DNA from: Patescibacteria group bacterium
Lineage (GTDB): Bacteria; Patescibacteriota; Patescibacteriia; Patescibacteriales; UBA12465
Assembly (NCBI GenBank): GCA_041661685.1
Contig: JBAZTY010000001.1
Location: 691 to 64,690 of the forward strand
DNA: 64,000 nt
Direction of reading: 5' to 3'
Positions 5,438 to 60,921 of the stretch are shown here, in pieces. Numbering within the stretch: position 1 is the stretch's first letter; every line of letters starts with the position of its first letter. The notes beneath the pieces were generated by a model that ran no database searches, was not told where the DNA came from, and was given only the letters and a program-made list of their open reading frames with translations. Made by a program: the position numbers and the translations under genes.

Positions 5438-5467
5438 AACTTAGCATTTTTATTGATATTTTGTCAA
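5438..5467 (-). promoter_or_regulatory. sigma70-like promoter for the 504-aa gene
   Basis: Read on the minus strand: TTGACA-N18-TAAGTT, with TG at the extended -10 position (aTGcTAAGTT). A perfect 9-bp-stem palindrome (5399-5420, CTTATTTGG-tttg-CCAAATAAG) lies just downstream in the leader. Confidence 0.45.
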
Positions 5468-5480
5468 TAGAACAAAAAAA

Positions 5481-5500
5481 TACCCGGACAAATCCGGGTA
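5481..5500 (-). terminator. rho-independent terminator of the hemerythrin gene
   Basis: Hairpin TACCCGGA-caaa-TCCGGGTA. On the minus strand it is followed by a run of seven T (5474-5480). It lies 17 nt past the stop at 5517. Confidence 0.65.
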
Positions 5501-5516
5501 TTTTCTGTATTCGAGT

Positions 5517-5930: not shown

Positions 5931-6069
5931 ATTTTTGTATTTTAATCCTATGTTTCTTATAAATATTATAGCATGATTTGAGTAATGGTCATAATTGTCA
6001 GGTCGTAGCTGCCGGCGGTAATTTAGCTGAAAGAAAAGGCTATTAGCTGCGTAATAAATAAAAACAGTC

Positions 6070-15039: not shown

Positions 15040-15040
15040 T

Positions 15041-16410: not shown

Positions 16411-16411
16411 G

Positions 16412-17314: not shown

Positions 17315-17321
17315 CTATCAT

Positions 17322-18512: not shown

Positions 18513-18515
18513 ATT

Positions 18516-18962
18516 ATGACGCTGCGATTTTTAAACATCAAGAATGAGAAGATATCACAGGTCGTCTATTACGTCTTCTTTGCCGGAGCCGCGACCGTCT
18601 GCGATTTCGGCATATTATACCTTCTGACCGATAAGGCCCATTTCCATTATTTCATATCTGCGGCCATCTCTTATACCGTCGGTATGGCCGTCAATTATAC
18701 TTTGAATAAATTCTTCAATTTTAAAGACAAGGATAAGAAGATCGCCCTGCAGTTCGGAGTCTTCGCCGGCGTCGCGCTCGTCGGGCTAGCTCTCAATCAG
18801 GCAATTATCAGCGCTTTAGTAGAATTATTCGGACTCTGGTATATGTTCGCCAAGGCTGTCAGCCTCTTGCTGGTGATGTTTTGGAGTTTCTGGGCGCATA
18901 AGAATATTACTTTCAACCTGAAGAGATTTCGCAAGAATAAAGATATTTTGGATAATAAATAA
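18516..18962 (+). CDS. GtrA-family membrane protein
   Basis: 148 aa with 4 TM helices. GtrA-like pattern (VVYYVFFAGAATVCDFGILYLL ... NYTLNKFFNFK ... WSFWAHKNITF). Confidence 0.8.
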   Translation: MTLRFLNIKNEKISQVVYYVFFAGAATVCDFGILYLLTDKAHFHYFISAAISYTVGMAVNYTLNKFFNFKDKDKKIALQFGVFAGVALVGLALNQAIISALVELFGLWYMFAKAVSLLLVMFWSFWAHKNITFNLKRFRKNKDILDNK

Positions 18963-18982
18963 GACAGGAATAATCAATAAAT

Positions 18983-20488: not shown

Positions 20489-22031
20489 ATCCTTTTGGGA
20501 ATATCTGGCATATTTTTTGGCAGCCACTTTTGCCGCTTATTTCTTCTATTTGTCTAAAGGCATTCATGGCTGGGAACATCTTTTGTCTACTTGGCAGGTT
20601 TTTTCAGGGCTTACACCGTTTATAGATTTTTTTGAGCATCATGGCCCGCTGCAATATTATCTATTCGCGCCGCTTTTTTATCTCGGCGGTTATAATTTTT
20701 TTCCTTTTTGGATGATAATCATAAATTCCTTGATTTGTGTTCTATTCATTAGGTATTTTTTTTGGAATTTTTCTTTTGGGATCAGGGGTAGGCTGATATT
20801 AGCGGCGGTTCTTATCTGGCTTTGGACGGTCATGTTTGGCGGCGTTTTCCTGCCCGAGCCATACGTCGCCTGTTTAGTGATTCTGATTTATCTGTTTTTT
20901 TCAAAGATCAGAGCGGAAGCTCAATCGCGGACTAATAATATCTATCTAGCCATTTTTGGAATCCTGTTCGGAGCGCTGTTTTTGATAAAATTCAACGCTT
21001 TCGTCCTGTTATCTTTCGGCCTCTGCCTTTATTGCCTGTTTAATTTCAAGAAGGAGCGGTCTCTGATAAATCTGAAAAACATCTCTCTCTTTGCCGCGGG
21101 GATGATCGCGCCGTTATTGCCGTTCCTATTCATATATCATGATAAGCTCAGGCAGGTCGCTTATCTGATGTTCACTTATAATTTCGGAGTAGTCTCTCGC
21201 TTAGCTCGCGCTTGGCCGCCGCAACCATTCAGTCTCTTCTTCCTGATTTTATCTGTCGATATTATCGTTTTGAGCGCGATATTCTTCAATAAAGAGAACA
21301 GGGAAAAATATTATAAACTGACTTTTCCAATCCTGTCTTCGCTGTGCTTACTACTGATGTCTTATCCTTTATATGGCAATTTCCATCTTCTTCCGGCCAT
21401 GGTCGGTTTTCTAACGGGAATCTTGCTGTTCTTTAAAGAAAAGATCTATCGGCGGTTTGCCGTTCAGGTTTCCGACTATAAGAAATACGTCGCCAGCGCG
21501 TTAGTTCTCCTAGTCATCTCCTATGTGTTCTTAACTTTCGCTAATTTTGTCTTTTCATTGGGTAAAGAGACTTATCGCATCTTCTGGGTCAGGCCCGAAG
21601 AATTCTATCATTCTGACTTTGCTCCGGGCGCTGCAGCCTATATAGAAGAGCAGGAAAGATGCGAATATGTCTATGTCTATCCGGCTGATCAATATAATCT
21701 GCCGATGTATATCGAACTGCCCGATGTTAAGCGAATCCGATTCGCCTATCCTAATTGGAACTGGACCTTTACTGAGGATATGCAGGAAATGATCGTCGCT
21801 GAGCTGGAGGATAAGCGAGTCGATTGCCTCTTAGTCGCGGATAAGCCCATGGAGACTACTCTGCACAGCCAGATCATCGAAGATTACGTCAGAGATAATT
21901 ATTCCAAGGTCGGGGAAGTGACTTGGCGGATTTACAGTTTCAAGAATTTGTTGCCATTCAAATTCATCACCGACTATAAGAAGAATGGCCAAGATTTCAC
22001 TTATAGCCTATTCAAGATCAACTCGCGTTAG
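20463..22031 (+). CDS. polytopic membrane protein, putative GT-C-type glycosyltransferase or polymerase
   Basis: 522 aa with about 10 or more TM helices and a C-terminal soluble domain. Acidic first loop ([14 protein letters not shown]). Sits next to GtrA. The assignment is by architecture only. Confidence 0.45.
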
Positions 22032-22169: not shown

Positions 22170-22202
22170 TAAGTGAATATACTTAATTTTAATTTGAAAT
22201 AT

Positions 22203-23041
22203 ATGCCTTTAATAAATCCTAAGAAAACTATCGCTCTATTCGAAAATGATCCTGTTCGTCGCGTTTGGAACAAGGAAGAAGAAAAATGGTACTTTTCTTT
22301 AATCGATGTCATCGCTATTTTAACTAGCCAGGCCGATTTTAAAAAAGCCCAAAGCTACTGGACTACATTGAAGAGCCGTCTAAAAAAGGAAGGAAATGAG
22401 TCTGTCACAAAATGTGACAAACTTAAAATGCAATCATCTGACGGTAAATATTATTTAACTGACGCTGCCGATGTCGAAACTCTATTGCGTTTGATTCAGT
22501 CAATTCCTTCTCCGAAAGCTGAGCCGTTTAAGCTCTGGCTGGCTAAAGTAGGCTATGAAAGAATGCGGGAAAGTATTGATCCGGAATTGGCTATAAGCCG
22601 CGCGCGAAGAAATTGGCAATTGCGCGGCCATAGCCAGAAATGGATAGAACGGCGCATGCTTAGCGTCGAGACAAGAAATAAGCTGACGGATTATTGGTCA
22701 GAGCATGAAGTTAATAAAGCTGTAGAATATGCTAAGCTGACTAATATCATTCATGAAGAATGGAGTGGCTTATCGGTTAGAGAACATAAAGACCTGAAAG
22801 GCCTGGAGGCAGAAAATTTGCGCGATCATATGTCGGAAGCGGAATTAATCTTTACTTCTTGGCTGAATTATCCACTCGCGAAATTGCTGAAGCCGGTAAG
22901 GCTGTAGGATATGAGAAAAACGAGGCGGCGGCTCATAGGGGTGGCAAGATTTCTGGTAACGCGCGGAAAGAATTGGAAAGCCAAATCAGACGGAATGTTG
23001 TTACTGGTGGTAATAATTTAAGAATGAAGAAAATAAAATAA
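22203..23041 (+). pseudogene. Bro-N domain protein (antirepressor/DinD-like), disrupted by a frameshift
   Basis: Bro-N-like N-terminus (ALFENDPVRRVWNKEEEKWYFSLIDVIAILT). The reading frame changes near 22858-22861: ...AELIFTSWLNYPL... continues in the +1 frame as LAELSTREIAEAGKAVGYEKNEAAAHRGGKISGNARKELE, which is track ORF 22859-23041. Confidence 0.6.
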
Positions 23042-23193: not shown

Positions 23194-24519
23194 TTATCTC
23201 CCTCCTCTACTGAGCATGGTCGCTACTGTCCGCAGGGCGATGGACAAGTCTAGATAGAGAGAGCGATGTTTGAGATAGAATAAGTCGTATTGGAGTTTCT
23301 CCAAGCTATCTTCGACCGAAGGGGAATGGTAGCGGCCGGAAATCTGGTCCCAGCCGGTGAGCCCCGGCTTGATCAGGAGGCGGGTCTTGAAGAAGGGAAT
23401 CTGCTTCTCGAGATCGGCGGTTATTTCCGGGCGTTCCGGGCGCGGGCCGATAAAGCTCATCTCGCCGCGCAGGATATTCCAAATTTGAGGAATTTCATCT
23501 AATCGCGTTTTGCGCAAGAAGTTGCCGAAGCCGGTGATACGCTTGTCGCCTTCTATGGTCATGGTCCTGGTGTTGTCCTCTTCTTTCATGGTCCGGAATT
23601 TTATCATCCAGAAAGGCTTCTCGTTGCGGCCCAGGCGGACTTGGCGGAAAAAGACTGGTCCGCGGCTCTCAAGCTTGATGATAATAGCGATGAGGGGCCA
23701 AAGGGGAAGAGTGATTAAGAGGACGATGATCGCCAGGATCGTGTCTATCAGCTGCTTGATGAAATTATAATAATTCTTGCCGCCTTCTTTCAGATTTTCC
23801 AGGAACCAGCCCGGTCCGATCTCTTCGACCGGAACTTTGCCGGTCAGGAGCTCATAAAAATCCGGGTAATCGAAGAAAGTGATATTAAGAGACAGGCAAT
23901 TGAAGAGGACTTGGCGCAAGCTGCCGCTCAGTCCGAAATCTTCGCAGATGACGACGGTATGGATATCTTTCTCCTTGATGCTCTCGGCTAGGCTGGCGAT
24001 CTCTTCTTGGTTCTTGAAAATAAGGGCGGCTTGATAGCCGGCGCCGGGGTTGTTCTGCAGGCCGGCCACGATCTTCTCCGTCTTCTGGTTGAAGCCGATA
24101 ATCGCCAGGCTTTCTTTGGGGATGAAAGAATGGATCAGCCCCTGGTAAAGGCCGCGCCAGGCAAAGAAGAGCAGGCTGAAGAGACCTAGGAAGATCAGGA
24201 GATTGGTCTTAGGAGCGATGCTGGTATTGGAATTGAGATAGAAATAGAGGATGGATAAGCCGCCGCTCAAGACGATAGCGCTGACGAGCTTCTGGAAAAA
24301 GACGCGGCCGTTCGCTTTCAGGTTGAGATTATAGAAATCATTAATATAAAGGACAATTAGCCAAATAATGAAGACAACGAAAAAATAGCGGGAGTGCTCC
24401 AGCCAGGTGCTGGTCCAGAGTGGTTGCGGATAGCGGATGGCGATTGTCAAGAATAGCGCCAGATTAAGGCTGGCCAGGTCGCCGCAGAACAGAATGAATT
24501 TTCTAAAACGGTTTAGCAT
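23194..24519 (-). CDS. polyprenyl-phosphate sugar-phosphate transferase (bacterial sugar transferase, WbaP/WcaJ-like priming enzyme)
   Basis: C-terminal catalytic domain motifs: KLESRGPVFFRQVRLGRNEKPFWMIKFRTM, DEIPQIWNILRGEMSFIGPRPERPE, KPGLTGWDQISG. Confidence 0.9.
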   Translation of the reverse strand: MLNRFRKFILFCGDLASLNLALFLTIAIRYPQPLWTSTWLEHSRYFFVVFIIWLIVLYINDFYNLNLKANGRVFFQKLVSAIVLSGGLSILYFYLNSNTSIAPKTNLLIFLGLFSLLFFAWRGLYQGLIHSFIPKESLAIIGFNQKTEKIVAGLQNNPGAGYQAALIFKNQEEIASLAESIKEKDIHTVVICEDFGLSGSLRQVLFNCLSLNITFFDYPDFYELLTGKVPVEEIGPGWFLENLKEGGKNYYNFIKQLIDTILAIIVLLITLPLWPLIAIIIKLESRGPVFFRQVRLGRNEKPFWMIKFRTMKEEDNTRTMTIEGDKRITGFGNFLRKTRLDEIPQIWNILRGEMSFIGPRPERPEITADLEKQIPFFKTRLLIKPGLTGWDQISGRYHSPSVEDSLEKLQYDLFYLKHRSLYLDLSIALRTVATMLSRGGR

Positions 24520-45450: not shown

Positions 45451-46491
45451 ATGTTCAATAATCTTCTCGGAAAATTCAGCCATGACTTAGGGATAGACTT
45501 GGGAACCAAGAATACCCTGGTTTATGTCGTTGATAAAGGGTTGGTAATCAATGAACCTAGCGTCGTCGCTATCAATAAACGCACGAATGAAATTCTGGAA
45601 GTCGGCGAGGCAGCCAAGAAGATGGTCGGTAAGACGCCGGGCCATATCGAGGCGATCAAGCCGCTCGTCGAAGGAATTATCTCTGATTTTGAAGTGACGG
45701 AAAAGATGCTCAAGTATTTCATCAATAAGGTTCATACCGAGAATTTTACTTTAATCTCCCGGCCGCGCGTTGTCATCGGCATTCCGCTCGATCTGACTGA
45801 AGTAGAGAAGAAAGCGGTCGAGGATGCCGCTAAGTCTGCCGGCGCTCGTAAAGTTTATTTGATTGAAGAAGCGATGGCGGCCGCTATCGGCGCTCGTTTG
45901 CCCGTAACTGAAGCGACGGCGACTATGGTCGTCGATATCGGCGGCGGCACTACTGAAATCGCCGTCATTTCTCTCGGCGGCGTCGTTACTTGGAAATCTC
46001 TAAAAGCGGCCGGCAATGAATTTGATAACAACATTATTGAATATATCCGCGAAGAGTTTAATATTCTCATCGGGGAACAATTAGCGGAAGCGATCAAGAT
46101 CTCTGTCGGTTCGGCTGTGCCTTTAGAAACGCCGACCGAAATCGAAGTGCGCGGCCGTGATCTTGTCACTGGTTTGCCAAAAGCTTTAATGGTTAGCGAT
46201 AAACAGATTAGGGAAGCGATCAGCCGGACGGTCATCAAGATTATCGACAACATCAAGATGATTCTAGAAACGACTCCGCCGGAATTAGTCTCCGATATTT
46301 ATGAGCGCGGCCTATATCTATCTGGCGGCGGCGCTTTATTGCGCGGTTTGGATAAGGCGATTTCTTTAGCCACCAAGATTCCCGTGAAGATTTCTGACGA
46401 CCCTTTGACTTGCGTCGTGCGCGGCACTGGCATTCTTTTAACTGATAAGGAATTATTAGAAAAAGTCGTCTTACCTTCGAATACTGACTAA
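45451..46491 (+). CDS. mreB: rod-shape determining actin homolog MreB
   Basis: DLGIDLGTKNT, VVDIGGGTTEIAVISLGG and LSGGGALLRGLDK. Confidence 0.9.
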   Translation: MFNNLLGKFSHDLGIDLGTKNTLVYVVDKGLVINEPSVVAINKRTNEILEVGEAAKKMVGKTPGHIEAIKPLVEGIISDFEVTEKMLKYFINKVHTENFTLISRPRVVIGIPLDLTEVEKKAVEDAAKSAGARKVYLIEEAMAAAIGARLPVTEATATMVVDIGGGTTEIAVISLGGVVTWKSLKAAGNEFDNNIIEYIREEFNILIGEQLAEAIKISVGSAVPLETPTEIEVRGRDLVTGLPKALMVSDKQIREAISRTVIKIIDNIKMILETTPPELVSDIYERGLYLSGGGALLRGLDKAISLATKIPVKISDDPLTCVVRGTGILLTDKELLEKVVLPSNTD

Positions 46492-47306
46492 TGCTGACTG
46501 ATATGATCAGGATCAAGAAGAACAATCCGATCGTCCCTGGCCTGATAATAGCCGTCGCGCTGTTTTTTTTGCATATATCAGGATTCTTGCGTCCGTTGGA
46601 AAATTCTTTGTCTTACTTGATAAAGCCGATTGCCGGCCGGTTCTATACGGCCGGTACGGATATCAAGATGGCTTATGACGCTAATAATAATCCGGAAGAT
46701 CCGAACGCGAGAGCCGAGCGCTTAGCCAAGGAAGTAGCCGTGTTGACGGTCGCTAATTCTCGCCGTTTGGAAATAGAGGAAGAGAATCGTAAATTACGAG
46801 AAGCTTTGAAATTCGTTAGTAATAATAGTTCTCGCGTCGTGGTCGCGAGCGTCATCGCTAAAGAAGCGGCCGCTGAAGATAGCCTAGGGCTAGTCATTAA
46901 TCGCGGCGCCAAGGACGGTTTAGTCCCTGGCTTAGCGGTAGTGAGCGAAGAAGGACTCATAGTCGGCAAAGTTTTAGAAACTAAAGATACGACTGCTAAG
47001 ATATGCCTGACGACGAATCCAAGCTGCCAATTAGCGGCGGCGATTCAGAATTCCGATAAGACTCAGGGAATCACCGACGGCGATCTCGGCCTGACGATTA
47101 AGATGAATTATATTCCCCAGTTAGAGAAGATAGCGCCAGGCGATATCGTCATAACTTCAGGCTTAGGCGAGCATATCGCCCGCGGCCTGGTCATCGGCCG
47201 GATCACGCAGGTATTCAACGAGAGCAACGAAGTCTGGCAGGAAGCGATTATCGAACCTTTGGCCGAACTTGATAATCTGACGATAGTTTCTATCCTTATC
47301 CCTTAA
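46491..47306 (+). CDS. mreC: rod-shape determining protein MreC
   Basis: TAATG overlap with mreB. N-terminal TM helix, a coiled coil (LEIEEENRKLREAL), then VINRGAKDGLVPGLAVVSEEGLIVGKV and GDIVITSGLG. Confidence 0.8.
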   Translation: MLTDMIRIKKNNPIVPGLIIAVALFFLHISGFLRPLENSLSYLIKPIAGRFYTAGTDIKMAYDANNNPEDPNARAERLAKEVAVLTVANSRRLEIEEENRKLREALKFVSNNSSRVVVASVIAKEAAAEDSLGLVINRGAKDGLVPGLAVVSEEGLIVGKVLETKDTTAKICLTTNPSCQLAAAIQNSDKTQGITDGDLGLTIKMNYIPQLEKIAPGDIVITSGLGEHIARGLVIGRITQVFNESNEVWQEAIIEPLAELDNLTIVSILIP

Positions 47307-47318
47307 TATTTCGGGAGT

Positions 47319-47852
47319 ATGCTGAAAAAAATCTGGCAGATAGCATTTTTAATTTTACTGCTTTCAGGCGTCGCCATCGTCCAATTTTCTTTTATCTTCT
47401 CGTTACCGTCAGTTTTTAGCCAGATAAATTTGGCCGTAATTACTTTGATCTTCACGCTCTTCTTTTTCGGCTTCCGGTCTTCGCTTTATGCCGCACTCGT
47501 CCTCGGTTTCTGGCTTGATCTATTTTCCTTTTATTTTTTCGGCCTCTATCTTCTGCTTTTCTTGCTGACGGTCATGCTCGCTAATTGGATACTAGAAACC
47601 AGGCTGACTAACCGTTCTTTATATTCTTTTCTGTTGTTAATCCTGATAGCGACGGCCGCTTATGATTTCGCGGCTGCCTTCCTGGTTTATCTGGTTGGCG
47701 CCTCTATCGGATCTTTCTTCTTGTGGAACGGCGCTTTCTGGTCGAATCTCCTTTATCAGATACTTTGGAGCGAATCAGCCGGCTTATTGATGTTCAGCCT
47801 AGCCGGCGCTTTGACGCGCCGCTTCAAGCCGTTCTTCTTAGAGAGAAAATAA
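47319..47852 (+). CDS. mreD: putative MreD
   Basis: 177-aa polytopic membrane protein directly after mreC. The call rests on position and topology only. Confidence 0.5.
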   Translation: MLKKIWQIAFLILLLSGVAIVQFSFIFSLPSVFSQINLAVITLIFTLFFFGFRSSLYAALVLGFWLDLFSFYFFGLYLLLFLLTVMLANWILETRLTNRSLYSFLLLILIATAAYDFAAAFLVYLVGASIGSFFLWNGAFWSNLLYQILWSESAGLLMFSLAGALTRRFKPFFLERK

Positions 47853-50371: not shown

Positions 50372-50788
50372 ATGGAAAACAAAAAAATATTCATCATCGA
50401 AGATGACGCCAATATCCTGTATGGGCTAGAATCGCAATTTTCTGCTGATGAATTCGAAGTGGGAACGGCAACCGGCGATGAAGAAATTGAGGAATTGATG
50501 GAGGAACTTCGGGATTTTGAACCGGATTTTATTATTCTTGATCTGATATTGCCCAAGATCGACGGTTTCGAGATCGTCAAGAGATTAAAGTCTGATGATG
50601 AGCTTAATGATAAGCAGATTTTTATTTTCACCGATCTGAGCGACGAGGATAGCCGCCAGCGCAGTTTGCAGCTGGGCGCTGATTATGTTTTTTTTAAGGA
50701 AGAGTTTGATACTTTTGAATTTGTCGAGAAAGTCAAGCGTATTGTCGCTGTCCAGGAAAAGACTGTCGATCGCGATTACGAAGAATAG
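50372..50788 (+). CDS. single-domain response regulator (receiver only)
   Basis: IIEDD acidic pocket, phospho-acceptor context FIILDLILPKIDG, conserved T (FIFTDLS) and K (YVFFKEE). No output domain. Confidence 0.8.
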   Translation: MENKKIFIIEDDANILYGLESQFSADEFEVGTATGDEEIEELMEELRDFEPDFIILDLILPKIDGFEIVKRLKSDDELNDKQIFIFTDLSDEDSRQRSLQLGADYVFFKEEFDTFEFVEKVKRIVAVQEKTVDRDYEE

Positions 50789-50843: not shown

Positions 50844-50866
50844 AGATTAGTGTTATATTTTTGCGT

Positions 50867-51874
50867 ATGTTTATCAAAAGAATCGGGATTGATCTCGGTA
50901 CAACCTATACTTTGATTCATCTGCCTAAGCGCGGTATCGTTATTAACGAGCCGAGCGTGGTGGCGGTTTCTATTCATGATAAGAAAATCTTGGCGGTCGG
51001 AAACGAAGCTAAGGATATGATCGGCCGTACTCCGGATACGATCATGGCCGTGCGCCCTTTGAAGGATGGGGTCATTGCCGATTATCGGGCGACCGAAGCC
51101 ATGATCCGTTATTTCATTAATAAAACTTTAGGAGGCATCCGCTTATTCCGTCCGGAAGTCATGGTGGCTGTGCCGGCGGGCATTTCGTCTACCGAACGCC
51201 GCGCGGTCATCGAAGCGACTATCGCCGCTGGCGCTAAAGCCGCTTATATCATCAAGGAGCCAGTAGCGGCGGCTATCGGCGCTGATATTCCTATCGGCTC
51301 GGCTACCGGACATATGGTCATAGATATCGGCGGCGGAACGGCGGAAATGGCCGTCATCTCTTTAGGGGGCATTGTCGCATCTACTTCTGTGCGCGTCGGC
51401 GGCAATAAGTTCGATGCCGCGATTTTAGAATATATCCGCAAGAAATATAACCTGGCTATCGGCGAAAGGACGGCCGAAGAAATCAAGATCAATATCGGCT
51501 CTGCTTTATATATGGAAGATAAATTATATTTGGAAATACGCGGCCGCGATATCGTGACCGGCTTGCCGCGTAGCCTGACTGTTTCAAGCGACGACGTGAC
51601 TGAAGCTATTCAGAATGAATTGGAAGCGATTATCGCCGCGGCTAAGAAGGTGCTGCAGAAGACGCCGCCGGAGTTATCGGCGGATATCATGGATAAGGGC
51701 ATAGTCCTGACTGGCGGCAGCTCCTTGCTCCGCAATATCGATCAATTGATCGCTCGCACGACTGGCGTCTCCGCTTATGTCGCCGATGATGCCATGCTTT
51801 GCGTCGCCAAGGGCACCGGTATCGCGCTTGATAATTTGGATTCTTATAAACGCAGCATTCTAGCAACTAAATAA
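50867..51874 (+). CDS. mreB: second MreB paralog
   Basis: IGIDLGTTYT, VIDIGGGTAEMAVISLGG and LTGGSSLLRNID. ATG 50867 is preferred over the track's TTG 50861. Confidence 0.85.
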   Translation: MFIKRIGIDLGTTYTLIHLPKRGIVINEPSVVAVSIHDKKILAVGNEAKDMIGRTPDTIMAVRPLKDGVIADYRATEAMIRYFINKTLGGIRLFRPEVMVAVPAGISSTERRAVIEATIAAGAKAAYIIKEPVAAAIGADIPIGSATGHMVIDIGGGTAEMAVISLGGIVASTSVRVGGNKFDAAILEYIRKKYNLAIGERTAEEIKINIGSALYMEDKLYLEIRGRDIVTGLPRSLTVSSDDVTEAIQNELEAIIAAAKKVLQKTPPELSADIMDKGIVLTGGSSLLRNIDQLIARTTGVSAYVADDAMLCVAKGTGIALDNLDSYKRSILATK

Positions 51875-53127: not shown

Positions 53128-53162
53128 ATAATAATTAAGATATGTTAGTATTAAGGTGTTAT

Positions 53163-55193
53163 ATGAAGAAATTGATAACATCTTTTTTTATTCTGTCCCT
53201 TTTTTTGGCAGAACCTGTTTTGGCTAATATTACGCCGAACGATTTTTATTATGGTAATCAATGGTACCTATCGAAGATTAAGGCGGACAGCGCCTGGGAT
53301 AAGATTACTGGCAGCCCGGATATGGTGATTGCGGTCATTGATTCCGGCATTCAGGTCAATCATCCTGACCTGAAAGATAATATTTGGAAGAATGCTCGAG
53401 AGATTTTTGGCAATAATATTGATGATGACGGTAATGGTTTTATTGATGATGTGAGCGGCTGGGATTTCGTCAATAATGCTCCGGATCCATCACCGAAATT
53501 CACGGTGGGCTGGACCGAGGCCGGAGTTTCTCACGGTACGATGGTCGCCGGCATCATCGCCGCGCGCGGCAACAACAGCGAAGGCGTCGCCGGCATTACC
53601 TGGCAGGCGCAAATCATGGCTCTTAAAGTTTTGAATGATAAGGGTGAAGGCAAATTGAGCAATGTTATCCGGGCAATCGATTATGCGATTGCTAACGGCG
53701 CCGATATAATAAATCTTAGTTTTGTTTCTTTTACTTATAGCGATGGCATGCAGGAGGCGATACGCCGGGCGCACAAGGCTGGCATTATGATTGTGGCTGC
53801 CGCCGGCAACGAACAGGCGGATGGCGTCGGTTATGATATTGAGAAGACCCCTATCTATCCAGCTTGTTATGACGGCGAACTCATCGGCGAGAATATGGTG
53901 ATCGGCGTGGCCGCGACTGATGCGCTGGATCAGAAAGCGAAATTTTCTAGCTATGGTTCGCGCTGCGTTGATCTGGTCGCTCCCGGCATCAGCTTTTTTA
54001 GCGCCGTAACTGCCGGCAGCGTAGTTGATTTTTCCAATAAACTCTATGACGGCTACTGGTCGGGGACTTCCATGGCGGCGCCGCAAGTGACCGCAACCCT
54101 AGCCTTGATTGCCCAAGCTAATTCAGAATTGAGTCGTCGCGAGATAGTTAATATCCTCTTCGCTTCCACTGATAATATCAGTCGGCTGAATCCTGATTAT
54201 GCAGGCCAGTTAGGTAACGGACGCTTGAATGTCAATCGAGCCGTCGAGATGGCCAAAGAGAAATTATATAGCCGTGTCGGCCGTATAGTCGTCTTGCCGC
54301 AGAGCTCTGCCAAGAGCAAACAGCCTAAGCTTACGGCTGCTACTGGAGACCTGGCTGATAAGTTGCCTCTGGATATCAAGGGCGGAGAAAGCGTAGCGAT
54401 AGGAGACGTCAACGGCGATGGCTTGGAGGAGATAGTCATCGGCGCGGGAACGAGCGGTGAGCCGAAAATCATGATTTATAGCGAAAGCGGCCGGTTGATT
54501 AAGCAGATTCTGGCATATGATAAATATTTTCGCGGCGGCGTGAGCGTCGCCTTAGTAGATATTAACGGCGATGAACAGATGGAAATCGCCGCCGCCCAAG
54601 CAGCGCGAGGCACGGGCCAAGTGAAGATTTTTAATTATAGCGGGCAGCTAAAGAAGCAATTCTTAGTCGATAGCCGGTATTGGCGCGGCGGGCTTAATCT
54701 AGCGGCTGGCGATATCGATGGCAATGGCGATCAAGAGATAGTAGCCGCTTACGGCGCTGGCTCCGAGCCGATGATCAAGATGTTCCACACTGACGGGAAG
54801 ATTCTGGGCGCTTTCCTGGCTTATGAAAAGAAATTTCGCGGCGGAGTGAAAGTGGCCGTCGCGAATTTAAATGGTCGTAAGAACCACAATCAGGCGGATA
54901 TTATTGTTTCTCCCGGAAAAGGCCGAGACCCGCAAATTAAGATATTTGATAATCACGGCATCATGACTCGCCAGTTTTTAGCTTATAGCCGTAATTGGCA
55001 GGGCGGGGTGAATCTGTCCGCCGGCGATTTGAATAACGACGGTTTGCCGGAGATAGCAACCGCTGCCCAGGCGGGGGCCGCGCCGCATGTCCGTGTTTTC
55101 AGCGCTCGCGGTGAATTAATGGAATCATTTTACGCCTGGGAAGAAAACTGGAATGGCGGCGTTAATATTGGTATAATAAAGATCAGTAACTAA
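53163..55193 (+). CDS. secreted subtilisin-like (S8) serine protease fused to FG-GAP/VCBS-type repeats
   Basis: Signal peptide. Catalytic-triad contexts VIAVIDSGI (D), SHGTMVAGIIAA (H) and GTSMAAPQVTA (S). The C-terminal half has at least four repeats of the type GDVNGDGLEEIVIGAG, VDINGDEQMEIAAA, GDIDGNGDQEIVAA, GDLNNDGLPEIATAA. Confidence 0.85.
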   Translation: MKKLITSFFILSLFLAEPVLANITPNDFYYGNQWYLSKIKADSAWDKITGSPDMVIAVIDSGIQVNHPDLKDNIWKNAREIFGNNIDDDGNGFIDDVSGWDFVNNAPDPSPKFTVGWTEAGVSHGTMVAGIIAARGNNSEGVAGITWQAQIMALKVLNDKGEGKLSNVIRAIDYAIANGADIINLSFVSFTYSDGMQEAIRRAHKAGIMIVAAAGNEQADGVGYDIEKTPIYPACYDGELIGENMVIGVAATDALDQKAKFSSYGSRCVDLVAPGISFFSAVTAGSVVDFSNKLYDGYWSGTSMAAPQVTATLALIAQANSELSRREIVNILFASTDNISRLNPDYAGQLGNGRLNVNRAVEMAKEKLYSRVGRIVVLPQSSAKSKQPKLTAATGDLADKLPLDIKGGESVAIGDVNGDGLEEIVIGAGTSGEPKIMIYSESGRLIKQILAYDKYFRGGVSVALVDINGDEQMEIAAAQAARGTGQVKIFNYSGQLKKQFLVDSRYWRGGLNLAAGDIDGNGDQEIVAAYGAGSEPMIKMFHTDGKILGAFLAYEKKFRGGVKVAVANLNGRKNHNQADIIVSPGKGRDPQIKIFDNHGIMTRQFLAYSRNWQGGVNLSAGDLNNDGLPEIATAAQAGAAPHVRVFSARGELMESFYAWEENWNGGVNIGIIKISN

Positions 55194-55200: not shown

Positions 55201-56223
55201 ATGTCTAAACAAGTCATCTTTGATAAGAAGAACATCCTTGTCGCTGGCGGCGCCGGTTTTATCGGCTCCCATCTTTGCGACGAGCTGCTTAAGACCGATA
55301 AAGTCATCTGCGTGGATAACTTTATTACCGGCAACGAACGCAATATTGATCATCTGCTCGCCAATCCCGATTTTATTTTCATCAATTATGACCTGTCCAA
55401 GCCTCTAGATCTGGAAGCGATTCCGGAATTGAAAAAATTTAAGATAGAATTCCAGGGCCTGCAAGAGATTTATAATCTGGCTTGTCCGATGTCGCCGCGC
55501 CGTTTTCTGGAAAATCGCTTAGCCGCTATCATGGCTAATTCATATGTCGTCAAGAATCTTCTAGATATGGCCGTAAAGTACAACTCTAAGCTGCTGCAAT
55601 TTTCATCTTCGGTCGTCTATGGCCCGCGCCGAGCAGATAATCCAGAATTAAAAGTGAAGGAAACTGATTTGGGCGCAGTCGATCAATTATCAGAACGCAG
55701 TTCTTATGACGAAGGCAAGCGTTTTGCCGAAACCATAGTTAGCAATTATCGGTCTCTCTATAATGTCGATGCGCGTATCATGCGCCTTTTTCGCGTCTAC
55801 GGACCGCGCATGGAAGCTAACGACGATCAGATGATTCCTGATTTCATCAAGAATGCCCTAGATAATAATGATGTAATTATCAATGGCGACGAAAAATTTT
55901 CTTCGTCTTTCTGCTATATCGACGACATTATTGATGCGGTTGGAAAATTCATGAATTCTGAACTTTCCGGTCCGATTAATGTCGGCTCTGATGTGGACAC
56001 TAATCTGACTGATATGGTCAAGATGATCATTTCGCTGACGGATTCAAGCTCTAAAATCACCTATGCCGAGAATAAACTGTTCCTGAGCGAATTAGTCCTG
56101 CCCGATATCCATCAGGCGCGCAACGAGCTCGGCTGGATGCCGGTCGTGACGCTCGAGAACGGATTAAAGAAGACAATTTTTGATATTGAGGCCAATAAGA
56201 GATTACAGGGATTCGGATCCTAA
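55201..56223 (+). CDS. NAD-dependent epimerase/dehydratase, UDP-glucuronate decarboxylase-like
   Basis: ILVAGGAGFIGSHLCDEL and SSYDEGKRFAE (YxxxK in a UXS-like context). Confidence 0.8.
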   Translation: MSKQVIFDKKNILVAGGAGFIGSHLCDELLKTDKVICVDNFITGNERNIDHLLANPDFIFINYDLSKPLDLEAIPELKKFKIEFQGLQEIYNLACPMSPRRFLENRLAAIMANSYVVKNLLDMAVKYNSKLLQFSSSVVYGPRRADNPELKVKETDLGAVDQLSERSSYDEGKRFAETIVSNYRSLYNVDARIMRLFRVYGPRMEANDDQMIPDFIKNALDNNDVIINGDEKFSSSFCYIDDIIDAVGKFMNSELSGPINVGSDVDTNLTDMVKMIISLTDSSSKITYAENKLFLSELVLPDIHQARNELGWMPVVTLENGLKKTIFDIEANKRLQGFGS

Positions 56224-57284
56224 TTAGCCATCAGGAGTATTTTTCCGATCAGATCGTTTTCATTCCCCGGCGCAAATAAGAGATCATCCTTTTCTATCAG
56301 TTCCGGAATGCCGCCGAGACGGGAAGCGATAACCGGCAGGCCAGCGGCATGGGCGCCATAAATAGTCGTCGGCGAATTCTCATAGCATAAAGAGGGAACG
56401 ATCAAACAATCGCTCTCTTTTTTTATTTTTTCCGTCTCTTCATAAGAAAGCGGCCCTAGGATTTTAATACGCGCATCAGCTTTTGCCTCGGTTCGCGCTT
56501 TTTCTAGACTGCTGCCGCCGCCACGGATGGCAATCGTCAAAGTCAATTCCGGCCCATTTATCTTTTTAAAAGCGTTTATTAATAAGAATATTCCTTTTTG
56601 TTCTTCAATCTGGCCGATGAATAGGAAATTTTTAGCGGGGCCATTTTTAGTTTGGGACGCGGTTTCCATTCCTGGCCAGATGAAAGGGCGGACTTCTTGT
56701 TTAGAATCTTTAAAAAAACCACGCTGTTTATGCATTTCTAAAAGCCAATCGGAAGGGGAAATGATTTTATCCGGAGAAGAGAAAAGCAGGCGCGTCAAAG
56801 CCTGATATACTTTGGCGCCAAAATTATTTATCTTTTCTTCTTGTCCGAAGATCATTAGTCCCGAGGGATGAAGGAGCTGGATGTCGTGCAGGAAATGCTC
56901 GTGGCGGACAAGCAGTTTTTTTAAAACGACCGGAGTCATAAAACCTAGGCCCATCAGGTTATGAGTGACGACTAGGTCGGGCTTTTCCGATTCCAGGATG
57001 GTTTTTATCTGGCGCGCCTTGCCGAAAGAAAAAATATCGCCGATATGCCAGCTAGCGCGATAGCAACGAGAATGCTTATTCAAGTTATAGAATTCGGAGT
57101 CGATGTAATATATCTTTTCTGCGGTGGTTTTTGCTTCGTCATTACCGGCGATTTTCGGGCGCGTCGCGATCAAGAAAACCTGGTGTCCGGATTTTCGAAA
57201 ATCATCAGCCATGAGCTTAACGGCTGTTTCTGCGCCGCCGCGGCTGTATTCCCCGTATAGATTATGCATCAAGCCTATCTTCAT
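56220..57284 (-). CDS. glycosyltransferase family 4
   Basis: MKIGLMHNLYGEYSRGGAE N-terminus. C-terminal LIVPSLCYENSPTTIYGAHAAGLPVIASRLGGIPELI. Its stop overlaps the convergent gene's stop. Confidence 0.85.
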   Translation of the reverse strand: MKIGLMHNLYGEYSRGGAETAVKLMADDFRKSGHQVFLIATRPKIAGNDEAKTTAEKIYYIDSEFYNLNKHSRCYRASWHIGDIFSFGKARQIKTILESEKPDLVVTHNLMGLGFMTPVVLKKLLVRHEHFLHDIQLLHPSGLMIFGQEEKINNFGAKVYQALTRLLFSSPDKIISPSDWLLEMHKQRGFFKDSKQEVRPFIWPGMETASQTKNGPAKNFLFIGQIEEQKGIFLLINAFKKINGPELTLTIAIRGGGSSLEKARTEAKADARIKILGPLSYEETEKIKKESDCLIVPSLCYENSPTTIYGAHAAGLPVIASRLGGIPELIEKDDLLFAPGNENDLIGKILLMAN

Positions 57285-57285
57285 A

Positions 57286-58413
57286 TCATTTGAATAATTC
57301 CCTAAACTTAGTTTTCATCAGATTATCGCCATATTTTTTTTCCGCCAGAGCCCTGGCTTTTTCTGCCATTTCTCCAGGCCTAAGCTTGTCACTCATGAAT
57401 AGCCTTAGCTTCTGTTCTAGATCAAAAACGCTTCCGGGTTCAATCAGCAATCCTTCTTCGCCGTCGTTAAAAACCTGGCGGACGCCGGGCAAATTAGAAG
57501 CCATAACTGGAGCGCCACAGGCTAGAGCCTCTATCAGGACGATGCCGAAGGCTTCATTGCCGTTAATCGAGGGCAGTATCAAAAGATCAGCTTTCTGATA
57601 AGCGCGGACAAGCTCGGTTTCGCTTAATTTTCCGACGAAGCGGACTTTTTTATTAAGATTCAGTCGCAGCGCCAGCGCTTCATATTCTGGGCGTTTGTCG
57701 CCTTCGCCGGCGATAGTTAGTTCAAAATTAAGGCCGCCTAGGCCGGCAGCAGCGCGTAATAATACGTCTACCCCTTTAAAATAATGGGCCGTGTCGAGCG
57801 CGCCGACGAATAATAAATCGAAGCGATCCTTCTTGATGAATTTAGCGCTGACAAAATTTACTATTTCCTTAGCTTTAGCTAGGAGGATATTATTAGCTGG
57901 CGTCTTCATTCCACTCGGTCGGAATTTATCTAGATCGACGGAAAAGGGTATCTCGCGGAATTTTTCCGGGTGAGCCCCGTAGCCATCTTTTATCTGGCTA
58001 TGTTTTACATAATCCAGGCTGGCTGTGACAATCAACTCCGCCTGTTTTAGCAGGGAGGCGCGGATGAAGCGGCTAGGCAGGCTTAGTATCTTAGCTAGCG
58101 GATTCAAACCGACGACGTCCATATGATAATGGATTATCAATTTTGGTTTCTTATGAAATATTTTGAAAAGCCAGACGATTTCTGCTGTGCCGAAATACGG
58201 ATAATGAAGATAGATATAGTCGAATGATTTCAAGCGCCAGAGCAGGGAGCCCAAAACAGAACCGTGGCCATATTTCAGCCACGGTTTTGTATTATAAGGC
58301 GTGAAGTCGATGACTTCATGTTCGGTTCTTAGTATCTGGCTGATTCGATCGGCGCTGTTGCCCATACCGCCGGCATAAGGCGGGAAAGCGCAGACGATAG
58401 AAGCGATTTTCAT
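57286..58413 (-). CDS. glycosyltransferase family 4
   Basis: LILPSINGNEAFGIVLIEALACGAPVMASNLPGVRQV. Confidence 0.85.
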   Translation of the reverse strand: MKIASIVCAFPPYAGGMGNSADRISQILRTEHEVIDFTPYNTKPWLKYGHGSVLGSLLWRLKSFDYIYLHYPYFGTAEIVWLFKIFHKKPKLIIHYHMDVVGLNPLAKILSLPSRFIRASLLKQAELIVTASLDYVKHSQIKDGYGAHPEKFREIPFSVDLDKFRPSGMKTPANNILLAKAKEIVNFVSAKFIKKDRFDLLFVGALDTAHYFKGVDVLLRAAAGLGGLNFELTIAGEGDKRPEYEALALRLNLNKKVRFVGKLSETELVRAYQKADLLILPSINGNEAFGIVLIEALACGAPVMASNLPGVRQVFNDGEEGLLIEPGSVFDLEQKLRLFMSDKLRPGEMAEKARALAEKKYGDNLMKTKFRELFK

Positions 58414-58415
58414 GT

Positions 58416-58736
58416 TTATTTCTTTAAGGTTATCTGGCGGACGATTTCGGTGAGACTCCTGTCCATCTTAGCTAGATCAAGTCTGAGCCGGAAGACCAGA
58501 TAGAATAAGGCCAAGACCGCAATATAGATCAAGAAGTTGATGCCGCTGCCGGAAAAGCCGAGCCAGGCAACGAGACGGTCGATCTGTTTGATAAAGATGA
58601 TGGCCGCCGCGGCGATTAGCCAAAAGACGAGCCATAAGGTGAATTCATTATTGCTAATTTGATTTTTCTTTTTTTGCGTGACTAGGCGGAAAATAAAGAA
58701 GATGATGATAACGATAGCGATTATCTGCTGCAGCAT
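58416..58736 (-). CDS. small membrane protein, DUF2304-like
   Basis: 106 aa with 3 TM helices, immediately downstream of a DPM1-like GT2. That context is typical for DUF2304. Family call is tentative. Confidence 0.5.
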   Translation of the reverse strand: MLQQIIAIVIIIFFIFRLVTQKKKNQISNNEFTLWLVFWLIAAAAIIFIKQIDRLVAWLGFSGSGINFLIYIAVLALFYLVFRLRLDLAKMDRSLTEIVRQITLKK

Positions 58737-58756
58737 AAATTTGTCTTTAAGCTTAT

Positions 58757-59419
58757 TTATTTTATTATTTTATGGATCAATAGGTCTTTAGCGACCCGGA
58801 AACCGCCGGATAGCTTTTGGCCGAAATGATGATAGATGACGGTGATCGGAACTTCGGCGACTCTTAATTTTTCTTGGAAGGCCTTTATCTGGATCTCACT
58901 GTTATGGGCCATCTCTCGATTATTTATCCTAATCTTTTCGGCGGCCAAGCGGCTCATCGCCCGGAAGCCGTTCTGCGGGTCGCTCAGTTTTATGCCCAGT
59001 ATTACGCGAGTGAAGATTTGTGCGAGCGGCATAATCAGGTATTTCTTGACCGGCGGCAGATTCGCTTTCTTGCCTAAGAAGCGGGAACCGAAGACGATAT
59101 CGGCGCTTCCTTCTCTTATCGGCGCGGTCATATCTTTTATTTCCGTGGCCAAGAATTGATCGTCGGCATCGAAATGGACGATGATATCGGCGCCATGGTC
59201 GAGAGCATAATCGTTTCCGGTCTGAAGCGCTGCGCCCTGGCCGCGATTGATCGGATGGCGGAAGACGGTTGCGCCGGCTATCTCGGCGGCCGCAGCAGTA
59301 TCGTCGCCAGAGCCGTCGTCTATGACAACGATCTCATCGACAAAAGGCCGGGCGCCGGCAATGACTTTAGCGATATTTTTTCCTTCGTTCCAAGCAGGGA
59401 TGACGCAGATTATCTTCAT
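58757..59419 (-). CDS. glycosyltransferase family 2 (polyprenyl-phosphate sugar synthase-like)
   Basis: ICVIPAWNEGKNIAKVI, VVIDDGSGDDT, HFDADDQ (DxD). Short 220-aa DPM1-like architecture. Confidence 0.85.
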   Translation of the reverse strand: MKIICVIPAWNEGKNIAKVIAGARPFVDEIVVIDDGSGDDTAAAAEIAGATVFRHPINRGQGAALQTGNDYALDHGADIIVHFDADDQFLATEIKDMTAPIREGSADIVFGSRFLGKKANLPPVKKYLIMPLAQIFTRVILGIKLSDPQNGFRAMSRLAAEKIRINNREMAHNSEIQIKAFQEKLRVAEVPITVIYHHFGQKLSGGFRVAKDLLIHKIIK

Positions 59420-60426
59420 ATTAATCCTTCTTTCGTTTTTTTTGTTCTGTCATGAGCGAGCGGACAGAAGCCATCTTTGAGCGCTGTCTTTTCTAGCTCT
59501 TCGCAATAACTCTCTGGTTTCTGCTCGTGCTTTTCGATAAGCAGTTTTTTCAGAGTCGGCGTAATTTGTAAGACTTCGAATAAGCCGATTTCTTTCCGTT
59601 GATCGCGGCTGGCTTTTCCGGACTTTCTTTTCATGGCGGCCAGGCGTTGATTTACGATCATCTTAAGGTTATCCAGCTTTAATTTCAAGGGCAGCTTCGC
59701 GGCCACGATATTATGAAGCGTTTCGAAAGAATCGGCAGCAGTCATGGTCCCGAAGACTAGTCGGCCGCTGTTAGCCGCTCGGATAGCGTATTCTAGCGAG
59801 TCAGGCTCATCCAGATCGTCAGTAAAGATTATTTCTGAATCTAGTTTGAGCAGTTTTTCCCAGTTAGTCTTGGTCGGAAGCAGGGAAGCGACTCCCGGAA
59901 TTTCATAGGCAGTTTGTTTTTGCAGGGAGTAGATGCTCTTGTTAGAATCGCCTAGTTCGAGAAGCAAGGAATTAAGCGTGGCACTCTTGCCTTCGCCTTC
60001 CGGAGAACTAATGATTACTAAGCCCGATTTCAGTTTCAGGGATTTCCTGATCTCTTGGAGCCCCGGCTTCTGCAGTCCGATCCTATTCAGGCGCCAGAGA
60101 GTGAACGGTCGGTCGATGAGATTGATGATGATTTTTTCTCCATTTGCTTCCGGCAGGATAGTCAGATAGAAATTAATGCAGCCGGATTTATGATGGAGCT
60201 TGCAGTATTTTTTAACAGTCAATTCCCCTGGAGCGATGGCCAGTATCTTTCTTAGGCTGGAGAATAATTCCGGGTCTAACTTCTTAGGCAAGATTAGGCT
60301 CTGCTTATCCCGTCCGGAAAAGTAGCAGTCTAGGACAAGCTGGTCGGCTCGTCTGGCGATGACCAGATTATCCGCCCCTTCGCCGGCGGCATAATTGAAT
60401 ATCTTGGTGATAATTTTTTGGCTCAT
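59416..60426 (-). CDS. degenerate GspE/PilB-family secretion ATPase-like protein
   Basis: Collinear with type II/IV secretion ATPases. Walker A-like SSPEGEGKSATL is retained. The Asp box, Walker B and His box positions are diverged: EIIFTDDLDEP, and SGRLVFGTMTAA where TGHLV.STLHTN is expected. ATGA overlap with the downstream GT2. Confidence 0.6.
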   Translation of the reverse strand: MSQKIITKIFNYAAGEGADNLVIARRADQLVLDCYFSGRDKQSLILPKKLDPELFSSLRKILAIAPGELTVKKYCKLHHKSGCINFYLTILPEANGEKIIINLIDRPFTLWRLNRIGLQKPGLQEIRKSLKLKSGLVIISSPEGEGKSATLNSLLLELGDSNKSIYSLQKQTAYEIPGVASLLPTKTNWEKLLKLDSEIIFTDDLDEPDSLEYAIRAANSGRLVFGTMTAADSFETLHNIVAAKLPLKLKLDNLKMIVNQRLAAMKRKSGKASRDQRKEIGLFEVLQITPTLKKLLIEKHEQKPESYCEELEKTALKDGFCPLAHDRTKKTKEGLI

Positions 60427-60507
60427 AATATCTTAATTATAACATAGTTTTGTATTATTTTAAAATGTGATAAACTGAAAATAAATAGATTATTCTCTTA
60501 TCTTTTT

Positions 60508-60921
60508 ATGGTTTATTCTAATCTTTACGCCCGTTTTTACTCTTTTTGTCAAGAAATCAGAACCGCTGGCGCGGCGCTTTGGCGTTTTGCCCCCAGTCGT
60601 TTCTACCTGGGGCTGGCCGCTTTGTTTCAGGTTGTCCTCTGGCTACAGGCTGTTTTTATTTATAAGCATTTAAGCGGAGAGCTGTTAGTCCTCCATTATA
60701 ATATTGATTTTGGCATTGATCTCGTCGGCGCGCCTTGGCATATTTTCTTCTATCCGCTCTATGCCTTAGGTATCTTGGCTTTGAATTGGATTATGGTTGC
60801 CGCTCTGCATCGCCGCCAATATTTTCGGCTATTCGCCAATATCTTGCTGGCGGCCGCTGAATTGTTTTCGCTGTTCATCAGCTTGGCGTTGATGTTCATT
60901 TATTTGATTAATTTTAGATAA
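60508..60921 (+). CDS. hypothetical polytopic membrane protein
   Basis: 137 aa with 3-4 TM helices, immediately upstream of mraY. No family recognised. Confidence 0.5.
   Translation: MVYSNLYARFYSFCQEIRTAGAALWRFAPSRFYLGLAALFQVVLWLQAVFIYKHLSGELLVLHYNIDFGIDLVGAPWHIFFYPLYALGILALNWIMVAALHRRQYFRLFANILLAAAELFSLFISLALMFIYLINFR

Follow-up and report, generated by a model that had tools for sequence, protein, structure and literature searches.

A gene at the head of a glycosyltransferase operon, in a 64,000-nucleotide (nt) stretch of DNA from a Patescibacteria group bacterium (contig JBAZTY010000001.1, positions 691 to 64,690; the whole stretch is called the window below), encodes a 336-amino-acid (aa) ATPase-like protein. 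By sequence and fold, this protein is a member of the T2SSE superfamily, to which PilB, GspE and PilF belong. Its identity and evolutionary origin as a descendant of the pilus ATPase PilB can be stated with high confidence, and the erosion of its catalytic boxes makes a loss of ATPase activity probable. As the best overall explanation, which we hold at just under an even chance, we propose a PilB-derived pseudo-ATPase that would act as a non-catalytic adaptor or regulator and is made together with the glycosyltransferase family 2 (GT2) protein and the DUF2304 protein encoded behind it.

The operon consists of five open reading frames (ORFs) on the minus strand, whose coordinates and Pfam families agree with those given in an earlier note on this DNA. 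The genes and the elements next to them are as follows.

59416-60426, minus strand: degenerate ATPase-like gene, probably PilB/GspE-derived; 336 aa, Pfam T2SSE.
58757-59419, minus strand: GT2, polyprenyl-phosphate glycosyltransferase of the DPM1/PpgS/GacI type; 220 aa, Pfam Glycos_transf_2 with 80.6 bits.
58416-58736, minus strand: small DUF2304 protein of the membrane that has three transmembrane (TM) segments, GacJ/Rv3632 type; 106 aa, Pfam DUF2304 with 64.4 bits, three hydrophobic segments.
57286-58413, minus strand: glycosyltransferase family 4 (GT4) protein a; 375 aa, Pfam Glycos_transf_1 with 131 bits, synteny conserved.
56220-57284, minus strand: GT4 protein b, last gene of the operon; 354 aa, Pfam Glycos_transf_1 and Glyco_transf_4.
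59416-59419, minus strand: ATGA overlap of the ATPase-like stop with the GT2 start, read directly in the sequence.
60436-60464, minus strand: promoter-like site TTTAAA-17 nt-TG-n-TATAAT, 10/12 match plus TG extension.
60508-60921, plus strand: TM137, a 137-aa protein with three TM segments, divergent neighbour of the ATPase-like gene and first gene of a TM137-MraY-FtsW(-MurG-MurC) division and cell wall (dcw) block.

The ATPase-like protein matched T2SSE (PF00437) over residues 78-295 with an E value of 1.4e-15 and 57.3 bits, compared to a gathering cutoff of 24.9. A phmmer search of the PDB yielded EpsE/GspE, PilB and PilF at E values of about 1e-14 to 1e-11, with EpsE as the best match (1e-14). 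The AlphaFold2 model, a check proposed in the earlier note, reached a predicted local distance difference test score (pLDDT) of 83.8 and matches the cores of the same proteins: the top Foldseek matches were PilF 5oiu, EpsE 1p9w and PilB 5tsh (E~6e-27, probability 1.00, 16-18% identity). Also among the PDB and Foldseek matches is 4pht, the complex in which GspE binds the platform protein GspL through its N-terminal region. The protein is composed of an N2 domain (residues ~1-105) and a RecA-like C-terminal domain (residues ~120-336); no TM segment is predicted in its 336 aa, as for a soluble protein. Of the 'N1E plus ATPase core' read earlier, the core is thereby upheld, whereas the domain in front of it is N2E/N2D and not N1E. 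The GspE model TIGR02533 is matched from profile position 112 onward, and in an alignment with a full-length PilB its residue 4 falls on residue 179, the N-terminal 178 aa being absent. Scores for the NCBIfam equivalog models are 65.5 for PilB (TIGR02538, cutoff 675.65) and 79.4 for GspE (NF007755, cutoff 617).

Alignment of the protein to EpsE 1p9r and to canonical PilB located the remnants of the catalytic boxes.

59977-60006, minus strand: P-loop remnant SPEGEGKSAT, residues 141-150; canonical GPTGSGKTTT, with the first Gly changed to Ser and Thr and Ser replaced by two Glu.
59899-59928, minus strand: Asp-box position SLQKQTAYEI, residues 167-176; VEDPIEY has become LQKQTAY, and E-D-P-x-E is absent.
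59803-59841, minus strand: Walker B position DSEIIFTDDLDEP, residues 196-208; IIMVGEIRD has become IIFTDDLDE, that is, D-D-L-D-E for G-E-I-R-D.
59734-59769, minus strand: His-box position SGRLVFGTMTAA, residues 220-231, for canonical TGHLVLSTLHTN; both His are gone, the first replaced by a conserved Arg.
59590-59637, minus strand: short basic linker MKRKSGKASRDQRKEI, residues ~264-279, in place of the zinc-binding tetracysteine sub-domain CPxC...GCxxC.

The alterations of the Walker B, Asp and His boxes described in the earlier note were each confirmed in this alignment, and the zinc-binding cysteine cluster is indeed lost; the linker that stands in its place has a pLDDT <50 at residues 271-275 of the model.

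For family statistics, 169 aligned degenerate members were compared with a set of 86 canonical PilBs. The Asp-box residues E169, P171 and E173 are found in 100% of the canonical set and are variable in the degenerate family. Similarly, Gly, Glu and Arg of the Walker B box are each present in 100% of canonical PilBs, and the Arg of EIRD is lost in the degenerate family. The His box, TGHLVxSTxHT in its canonical form, reads SGRLVFGTMTA in the window protein. Its first His is present in 86/86 canonical PilBs; in the family this position is held by Arg in 151, Lys in 8 and His in 5 of the 169 members, and the second His is variable. Altogether, 35 positions with at least 90% conservation in the canonical PilBs are relaxed or replaced, among them seven arginines (alignment positions 33, 35, 87, 102, 194, 206 and 239), the three Asp-box positions and G-E-x-R of the Walker B box. 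The tetracysteine motif is absent in the zinc-less family of the window protein and is kept in canonical PilBs from the same genomic slot and in degenerate forms of 355-390 aa. Judged by these alignments, the 336-aa protein falls short in every tested feature that defines a functional PilB/GspE ATPase.

A protein search with the window protein yielded at least 150 clusters at 90% identity with lengths of 272-361 aa, and on this comparison the degeneracy is family-wide and not a sequencing accident. The named cluster members are Candidatus Falkowbacteria or 'Patescibacteria group', and two bear odd labels of metagenome-assembled genomes. Among the genomes with this Patescibacteria-type locus, the records L002, L005, L006, L009 and L015 and the name of P0175 read 'uncultured Gammaproteobacteria bacterium' or 'Planctomycetes bacterium' and are probably mislabelled.

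The origin of the gene was approached through the slot in front of GT2, using the best 80 of 402 relatives from a metagenome scan anchored on GT2. The slot holds a degenerate copy in 48 loci and a canonical full-length PilB (578-584 aa, or its C-terminus on short contigs) in 9 loci, which include L060, L064, L096 and L101. In these same-slot PilBs all boxes are intact (GPTGSGKTTT, VEDPIEY, DIIMVGEIRDE, TGHLVLSTLHTN, LPQDGRF and CPNC...GCKKC). The PilB of L096 matches Pfam T2SSE with 446 bits and, in addition, MshEN, which is not matched in the window protein; its gene order of TM137(-), PilB(+), GT2(+) equals the arrangement in the window. An empty slot was found in 7 loci, where TM137 adjoins GT2 with an intergenic distance of 69-104 nt, and 9 loci display another order, an epimerase followed by GT2 (Epim>GT2), without a PilB-like gene. 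The forms of 355-390 aa, found in L022-L026, occupy the same slot and combine degenerate boxes and the same N-terminal truncation with a retained CPxC...GCxxC motif. The states can be arranged in five stages.

Stage 1, 578 aa: canonical PilB.
Stage 2, ~370 aa: boxes dead, zinc cluster kept.
Stage 3, 336 aa: zinc cluster lost (window).
Stage 4, ~295 aa: C-terminal helices lost (L018).
Stage 5, no protein: slot empty in one subclade.

Both degenerate classes, with and without the zinc cluster, have the truncation point and the His-to-Arg change in common, which argues for one origin of the two. Most simply, the ATPase-like gene would thus be a truncated descendant of pilB that arose stepwise and in place. 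Ranking by similarity is less clear. The same-slot PilBs take ranks 1-7 of the 86 canonical PilBs for most zinc-containing degenerate queries, with margins of a few bits, and rank 17th or lower for the window protein; similarity alone leaves the origin undecided. In a neighbour-joining tree of MraY and GT2 (no bootstrap, midpoint-rooted), the canonical and empty-slot lineages are sisters, and a single degeneration event is compatible with this tree only if it is rooted on the canonical-plus-empty branch, an assumed root with which all degenerate lineages become monophyletic.

Partly degenerate boxes were also observed in other PilB-like proteins. P0193 (L028, 397 aa) has AASAGNGKT, VEERIVY and NGKLV, scores 379 bits to a canonical same-slot PilB and stands in a different context; further cases are P0176, P0180, P0191, P0197, P0210, P0217, P0224, P0226, P0232, P0239 and P0248. 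Partial degeneration of PilB paralogues hence seems to recur. P0169 (299 aa) and P0193 are the most divergent relatives, on contigs too short to inform on the neighbourhood. The proteins P0153-P0171 (~980-1050 aa) are tandem 'double' PilBs with two complete and catalytically intact ATPase cores per polypeptide; their named members are Candidatus Paceibacterota.

The neighbourhood was compared in protein-anchored loci, 17 from species-representative genomes and 9 obtained by exact-sequence look-up. The scan of species-representative genomes was made with an alignment narrower than the 27-member one, which has no conserved stretch. The same gene order was found in 25/25 protein-anchored loci with enough flank: MurC-MurG-FtsW-MraY-TM137 is divergent from ATPase-like-GT2-DUF2304-GT4-GT4, and the GT4 end of the operon is convergent with epimerase-S8 peptidase/FG-GAP-GT4-MreB. 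This order holds down to relatives with 27-32% identity to the window protein (L022-L026), and in all 73 informative loci with a degenerate copy, this copy lies upstream of GT2-DUF2304-GT4-GT4. The outcomes that the earlier note had named as speaking against its reading did not occur: the boxes are not intact, the linkage is not unique to this genome (73/73 loci) and the T2SSE family is matched with 57.3 bits.

In almost all loci that extend far enough, TM137 lies immediately upstream of MraY, and it is present in all three dcw-adjacent states of the slot (degenerate, canonical PilB and empty). It has no Pfam, NCBIfam or PADLOC match, and its rate of evolution comes close to that of the ATPase-like gene (30-78% identity).

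As stated earlier for pilin, PilC and PilM genes, no pilus gene is near: a scan of the 64-kb window that took in most ORFs with 100 aa or more revealed none of these and no PilT. In the fetched flanks, the tables of called genes likewise show no pilC, pilM, pilin or gsp neighbour, with the sole exception of a pilin-like gene in L026. The latter (2363-4186, minus strand) encodes a 607-aa protein with a weak match to N_methyl, the type IV pilin N-methylation motif, and faint BNR-type matches; it stands as an insertion between MurG and MurC, within the dcw block of this one degenerate-copy lineage.

The ATPase-like gene is probably the promoter-proximal first cistron on a leaderless or nearly leaderless mRNA. 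The -10 hexamer of the promoter-like site ends 9 nt before the ATG at 60426, and no Shine-Dalgarno-like sequence was found between the two. When 51 distinct regions upstream of orthologues are compared, 39 have TAnAAT at one of two positions, with its start at -15 (25 regions) or at -12 (14 regions), and a conserved CACATTTTAAAATAATAyAAAA block precedes the extended -10 element (TGnTATAAT) in orthologues (L001-L108). For canonical PilB genes, TATAAT is located 35-55 nt upstream. In empty-slot loci the same promoter abuts GT2; L055 reads TATAATtaagaagattATG and the window reads TATAATtaagatattATG.

On its other side, the gene is joined to GT2 by the ATGA overlap that had been reported for the window at 59416-59419, and the GT2 ATG is preceded, 5 nt upstream, by AAGGA, a Shine-Dalgarno-like motif. 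In nearly all loci the stop of the degenerate gene overlaps the GT2 start or is only a few nt away from it; the gap between the two has a median of 4 nt, with an ATGA overlap in 27/81 loci, compared to 17-117 nt, or small ORFs in between, in loci with canonical PilB. The coupling to GT2 was thus tightened along with degeneration.

Downstream of GT2 the junctions measure 20, 2 and 1 nt, and the end of the GT4 b gene overlaps the end of the convergent epimerase gene. The nearest solved structure of GT2 in a PDB search is the Pyrococcus dolichol-P-mannose synthase 5mlz (E=2e-10). Among NCBIfam models, that of PpgS, the mycobacterial polyprenyl-phospho-GalNAc synthase, fits it best, with 162.2 bits, which is below the cutoff of 370, and therefore the match does not assign a sugar specificity. 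The DPM1-like GT2 is directly followed by the DUF2304 protein, and this pairing is kept across loci. No dedicated flippase or GT-C transferase for a lipid-linked sugar was found inside the operon; other parts of the window contain a GtrA-like gene (18516-18962), a Wzx gene (12811-14109) and an ORF with eight TM segments and no family match (20463-22031).

In the mechanism that we propose, the ATPase-like protein would not turn over ATP and would at most bind a nucleotide or another phosphate ligand, for which the putative contacts are what remains of the P-loop, G-[KR]-[ST], and the Arg that is conserved in place of the His-box His. It would be co-produced, as a non-catalytic adaptor or regulator, with a polyprenyl-phosphate-sugar synthase pair resembling GacI/GacJ, and may adjust how much lipid-linked sugar is supplied, or where, when a cell wall polymer or pilin is glycosylated at the surface. 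A present function as partner of the glycan pathway is suggested tentatively, and somewhat less firmly than the overall explanation. It is favoured because coupling to GT2 was tightened after degeneration, because the GspL-binding region was lost and because two precedents exist, namely GacJ/Rv3632 and the PilB of Myxococcus xanthus. We are more doubtful of the specific version in which a pilus-motor ATPase of Patescibacteria, once catalysis and the platform-binding modules had been lost, was exapted into a dedicated non-catalytic subunit or regulator of a GT2-DUF2304 synthase complex and couples glycosylation of the cell surface either to pilus status or to a signal from a nucleotide or another phosphate compound.

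Several observations weigh against a role in the glycan pathway. Throughout the clade, gene order is collinear all the way from MurC to MreB, and therefore adjacency alone is weak evidence on function. The presence of canonical PilB in the same slot of a sister subclade indicates that the adjacency is older than the degeneration, and it may be synteny passed on by inheritance. In 16 loci (7 with TM137 next to GT2 and 9 with Epim>GT2) the GT2 operon has no PilB-like gene at all, hence the pathway does not require the ATPase-like gene. Furthermore, no gene of the locus evolves faster than the ATPase-like gene (27-47% identity, compared to 56-78% for GT2), a pace not expected of an obligate subunit in a conserved enzyme complex. 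The earlier claim of a protein wired into a lipid-linked glycan pathway is therefore retained for its T2SSE ancestry, catalytic degeneracy and conserved linkage to the GT2 operon, and not for the functional wiring.

The same observations bear on the best of the alternatives, which we regard as unlikely. According to it, the ATPase-like protein still serves a type IV pilus machine as an inactive subunit, a competitor or a brake, either on the PilC/PilM platform or within PilB hexamers, and its adjacency to GT2 is merely inherited. The canonical PilB in the slot of sister lineages and the 16 glycan operons without the gene fit such a role, as do the retained two-domain core through which PilB forms hexamers and, in L026, the pilin-like gene of the dcw block. 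Genes for type IV pilins are present in Falkowbacteria (PMC8179133), so that the clade probably has a pilus machine. However, the loss of the N-terminal MshEN/N1 region, which in 4pht binds GspL, and of the zinc module argues against canonical docking to the pilus platform. The inter-subunit arginines are also gone, no pilus gene is found among the scanned ORFs of the window, and the gap to GT2 became shorter after degeneration.

A second alternative, to which we assign a low probability, is an active NTPase with unorthodox motifs, in which hhhhD[DE] would serve as Walker B in place of hhhhGE and Arg would replace the His-box sensor; it might power the flipping or extraction of a lipid-linked sugar. 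The window protein keeps GKS and has IIFTDD, and at the site of the catalytic Glu 68 of the 169 members have Asp, 57 have Glu and 44 have another residue, so that ~74% (125/169) are acidic near this site. A subgroup of ~290 aa has GxxxxGKS together with I-D-E, for which residual nucleotide chemistry is conceivable, and the nearly invariant Arg222 could contact the gamma-phosphate. The acidic residues and the ~290-aa subgroup also count against the inactivity that our preferred explanation assumes. On the other hand, the P-loop itself is not maintained. The earlier note had the lysine context of Walker A retained, which is correct for Lys and Ser of the window protein but does not extend to the family: G146 is present in 169/169 members, position 147 is Lys in 140, Arg in 26 and another residue in 3, and position 148 is Ser/Thr in 141/169. 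Walker A Lys is thus changed to Arg, Ile, Leu or Ala in 29/169 members, Ser/Thr is missing in 28, and the first Gly of GxxxxGK[ST] is kept in only 24/169. Hydrolysis is probably not the selected function, because K-to-R changes or loss of the Mg-binding Ser/Thr in ~15% of members would not be tolerated in an active P-loop ATPase family. The two Glu inside the P-loop of the window protein, the missing Asp box and seven arginines, and equivalog scores of 65-79 bits against cutoffs of 617-675 point in the same direction.

A third alternative of equally low probability, a functionless, decaying relic kept only for its 3' ribosome-binding site and the 5' promoter of the GT2 operon, would account for the fast evolution, the progressive shortening from 578 to ~370, 336 and ~295 aa, the clean absence in one subclade with the promoter fused directly to GT2, and one frameshifted copy, but the selection on the gene speaks against it. 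For the gene, the ratio of nonsynonymous to synonymous substitutions (dN/dS) amounts to 0.21 between L001 and L002, an unsaturated pair, and to 0.10 between L001 and the window, far below 1; values for neighbouring genes lie between 0.04 and 0.21. Some 75 independent loci with 27-100% identity have an intact ORF; a broken copy was found only in L015 (10001-11063), where it lies in two frames due to a frameshift or an assembly error. Among 27 diverse members, 18 columns are invariant and 36 nearly invariant, and the model is confidently folded. Genomes of such bacteria are generally small and streamlined and would be expected to shed dead genes. Taken together, the fold is kept, the catalytic residues are lost family-wide and purifying selection is acting, as is characteristic of a pseudoenzyme; the inactivity itself we infer from the altered residues.

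The remainder of the 64-kb window is rich in cell-envelope genes. A second, separate glycan cluster at 12811-22031 (plus strand) comprises a Wzx-type flippase, GT2, two methyltransferases, GT2, GT4, a GtrA-like and a flavin amine-oxidase-like gene; it also holds a 522-aa ORF with at least eight TM segments and no family match. A Bac_transf phosphoglycosyl transferase is encoded near it (23194-24519, minus strand), and an ORF with a BRO-N domain is located at 22173-22907. The regions 45451-47852 and 50861-51874 (plus strand) contain two MreB paralogues, MreC and a polytopic membrane ORF of 177 aa without family match, possibly MreD; a response-regulator receiver gene is found at 50372-50788. 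An S8 subtilase fused to FG-GAP repeats (53142-55193, plus strand, 683 aa) belongs to the conserved block, as do the epimerase and a third GT4. Positions 1-6000 are low in G + C (0.285-0.40, compared to ~0.46 elsewhere), and 3/5 of the ORFs there (209, 196 and 504 aa) have no family match, the others being borderline PP2C-like and hemerythrin matches. At 6481-9031 and 11221-12269 (plus strand), an ice-binding-like/DUF7507 surface protein beside a sortase and, separately, a helix-turn-helix and Fic/DOC pair resembling a toxin-antitoxin system are encoded. For the operon, a reading as a defence system, prompted by weak 'GT4-conflict' Pfam matches, was rejected: PADLOC remained blank for all six proteins, and generic GT4 models score far higher.

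Patescibacteria depend on surface structures for host attachment. In public records the window protein is labelled 'ATPase, T2SS/T4P/T4SS family', and members of its family carry this label, 'PilB-like' or 'TadA'; if they were taken for pilus motors, the pilus capacity of uncultured Patescibacteria would be overestimated. For this clade-specific pseudo-ATPase, apparently derived from PilB, the most attractive aspect is the evolutionary series at a fixed locus. Canonical motor, truncated zinc-containing dead form, zinc-less form, shorter form and empty slot constitute an unusually clean natural series at one position, which could serve for studies of the change of a hexameric motor ATPase into a pseudoenzyme. 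Should the protein work with the GacI/GacJ-like pair, it would represent a new type of accessory factor for the synthesis of lipid-linked sugars. In the case of a true exaptation, lipid-linked glycan synthesis would have a partner of a new class, and a stepwise transition from motor to adaptor would be documented. In agreement with the earlier note, which considered the arrangement undescribed, no description of the degenerate family or the arrangement was found in the searchable open-access literature (pseudo-ATPase and type IV pilus; Patescibacteria dcw cluster; degenerate Walker motifs in PilB of the Candidate Phyla Radiation).

Compared to PilB/GspE/PilF (PF00437; 1p9r, 5tsh, 5oiu), the window protein shares the N2 and RecA-like C-terminal domains, the residual Gly and Lys of the P-loop, and homology in sequence and fold, and its positional counterpart in sister genomes is a genuine PilB. 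It differs by the absence of N1/MshEN, the zinc module, the Asp box, the catalytic Glu, both His and seven arginines, by scores of about one tenth of the equivalog cutoffs, and by the lack of a pilus or secretion gene among the neighbours found.

ArlH/FlaH of archaeal motility is a non-hydrolysing, nucleotide-binding P-loop partner of a secretion-type ATPase system. It exemplifies the kind of role that a degenerate PilB could play, but is KaiC/RecA-like and not T2SSE, and is encoded within the motility operon. The sugar donor of TfpW-type pilin glycosylation is lipid-linked. In Pseudomonas aeruginosa, TfpW, a dedicated membrane-bound glycosyltransferase/oligosaccharyltransferase, decorates pili (bioRxiv 10.1101/2020.04.19.049825). 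By analogy, glycosylation of pilins from lipid-linked sugars might lie behind an ancestral pilB-GT2 neighbourhood. The GT2 operon described here contains neither a pilin nor a GT-C gene.

The DUF2304 proteins GacJ of Streptococcus pyogenes and Rv3632 of Mycobacterium tuberculosis stimulate their GT2 partners (bioRxiv 10.1101/180810). The GacI-GacJ and PpgS-Rv3632 pairs resemble the operon in the adjacency of a DPM1/PpgS-like GT2 gene and a DUF2304 gene; neither has a PilB-like gene in front. In M. xanthus, an ATPase-deficient PilB that is unable to build pili still signals exopolysaccharide production (PMC5544727), which provides a precedent for a glycan-linked role of the PilB fold other than that of a motor. 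The M. xanthus protein, however, is a point mutant of a full-length functional PilB and acts via the Dif chemosensory pathway, outside a glycan operon, whereas the loss in the family of the window protein is natural, extensive and ancient.

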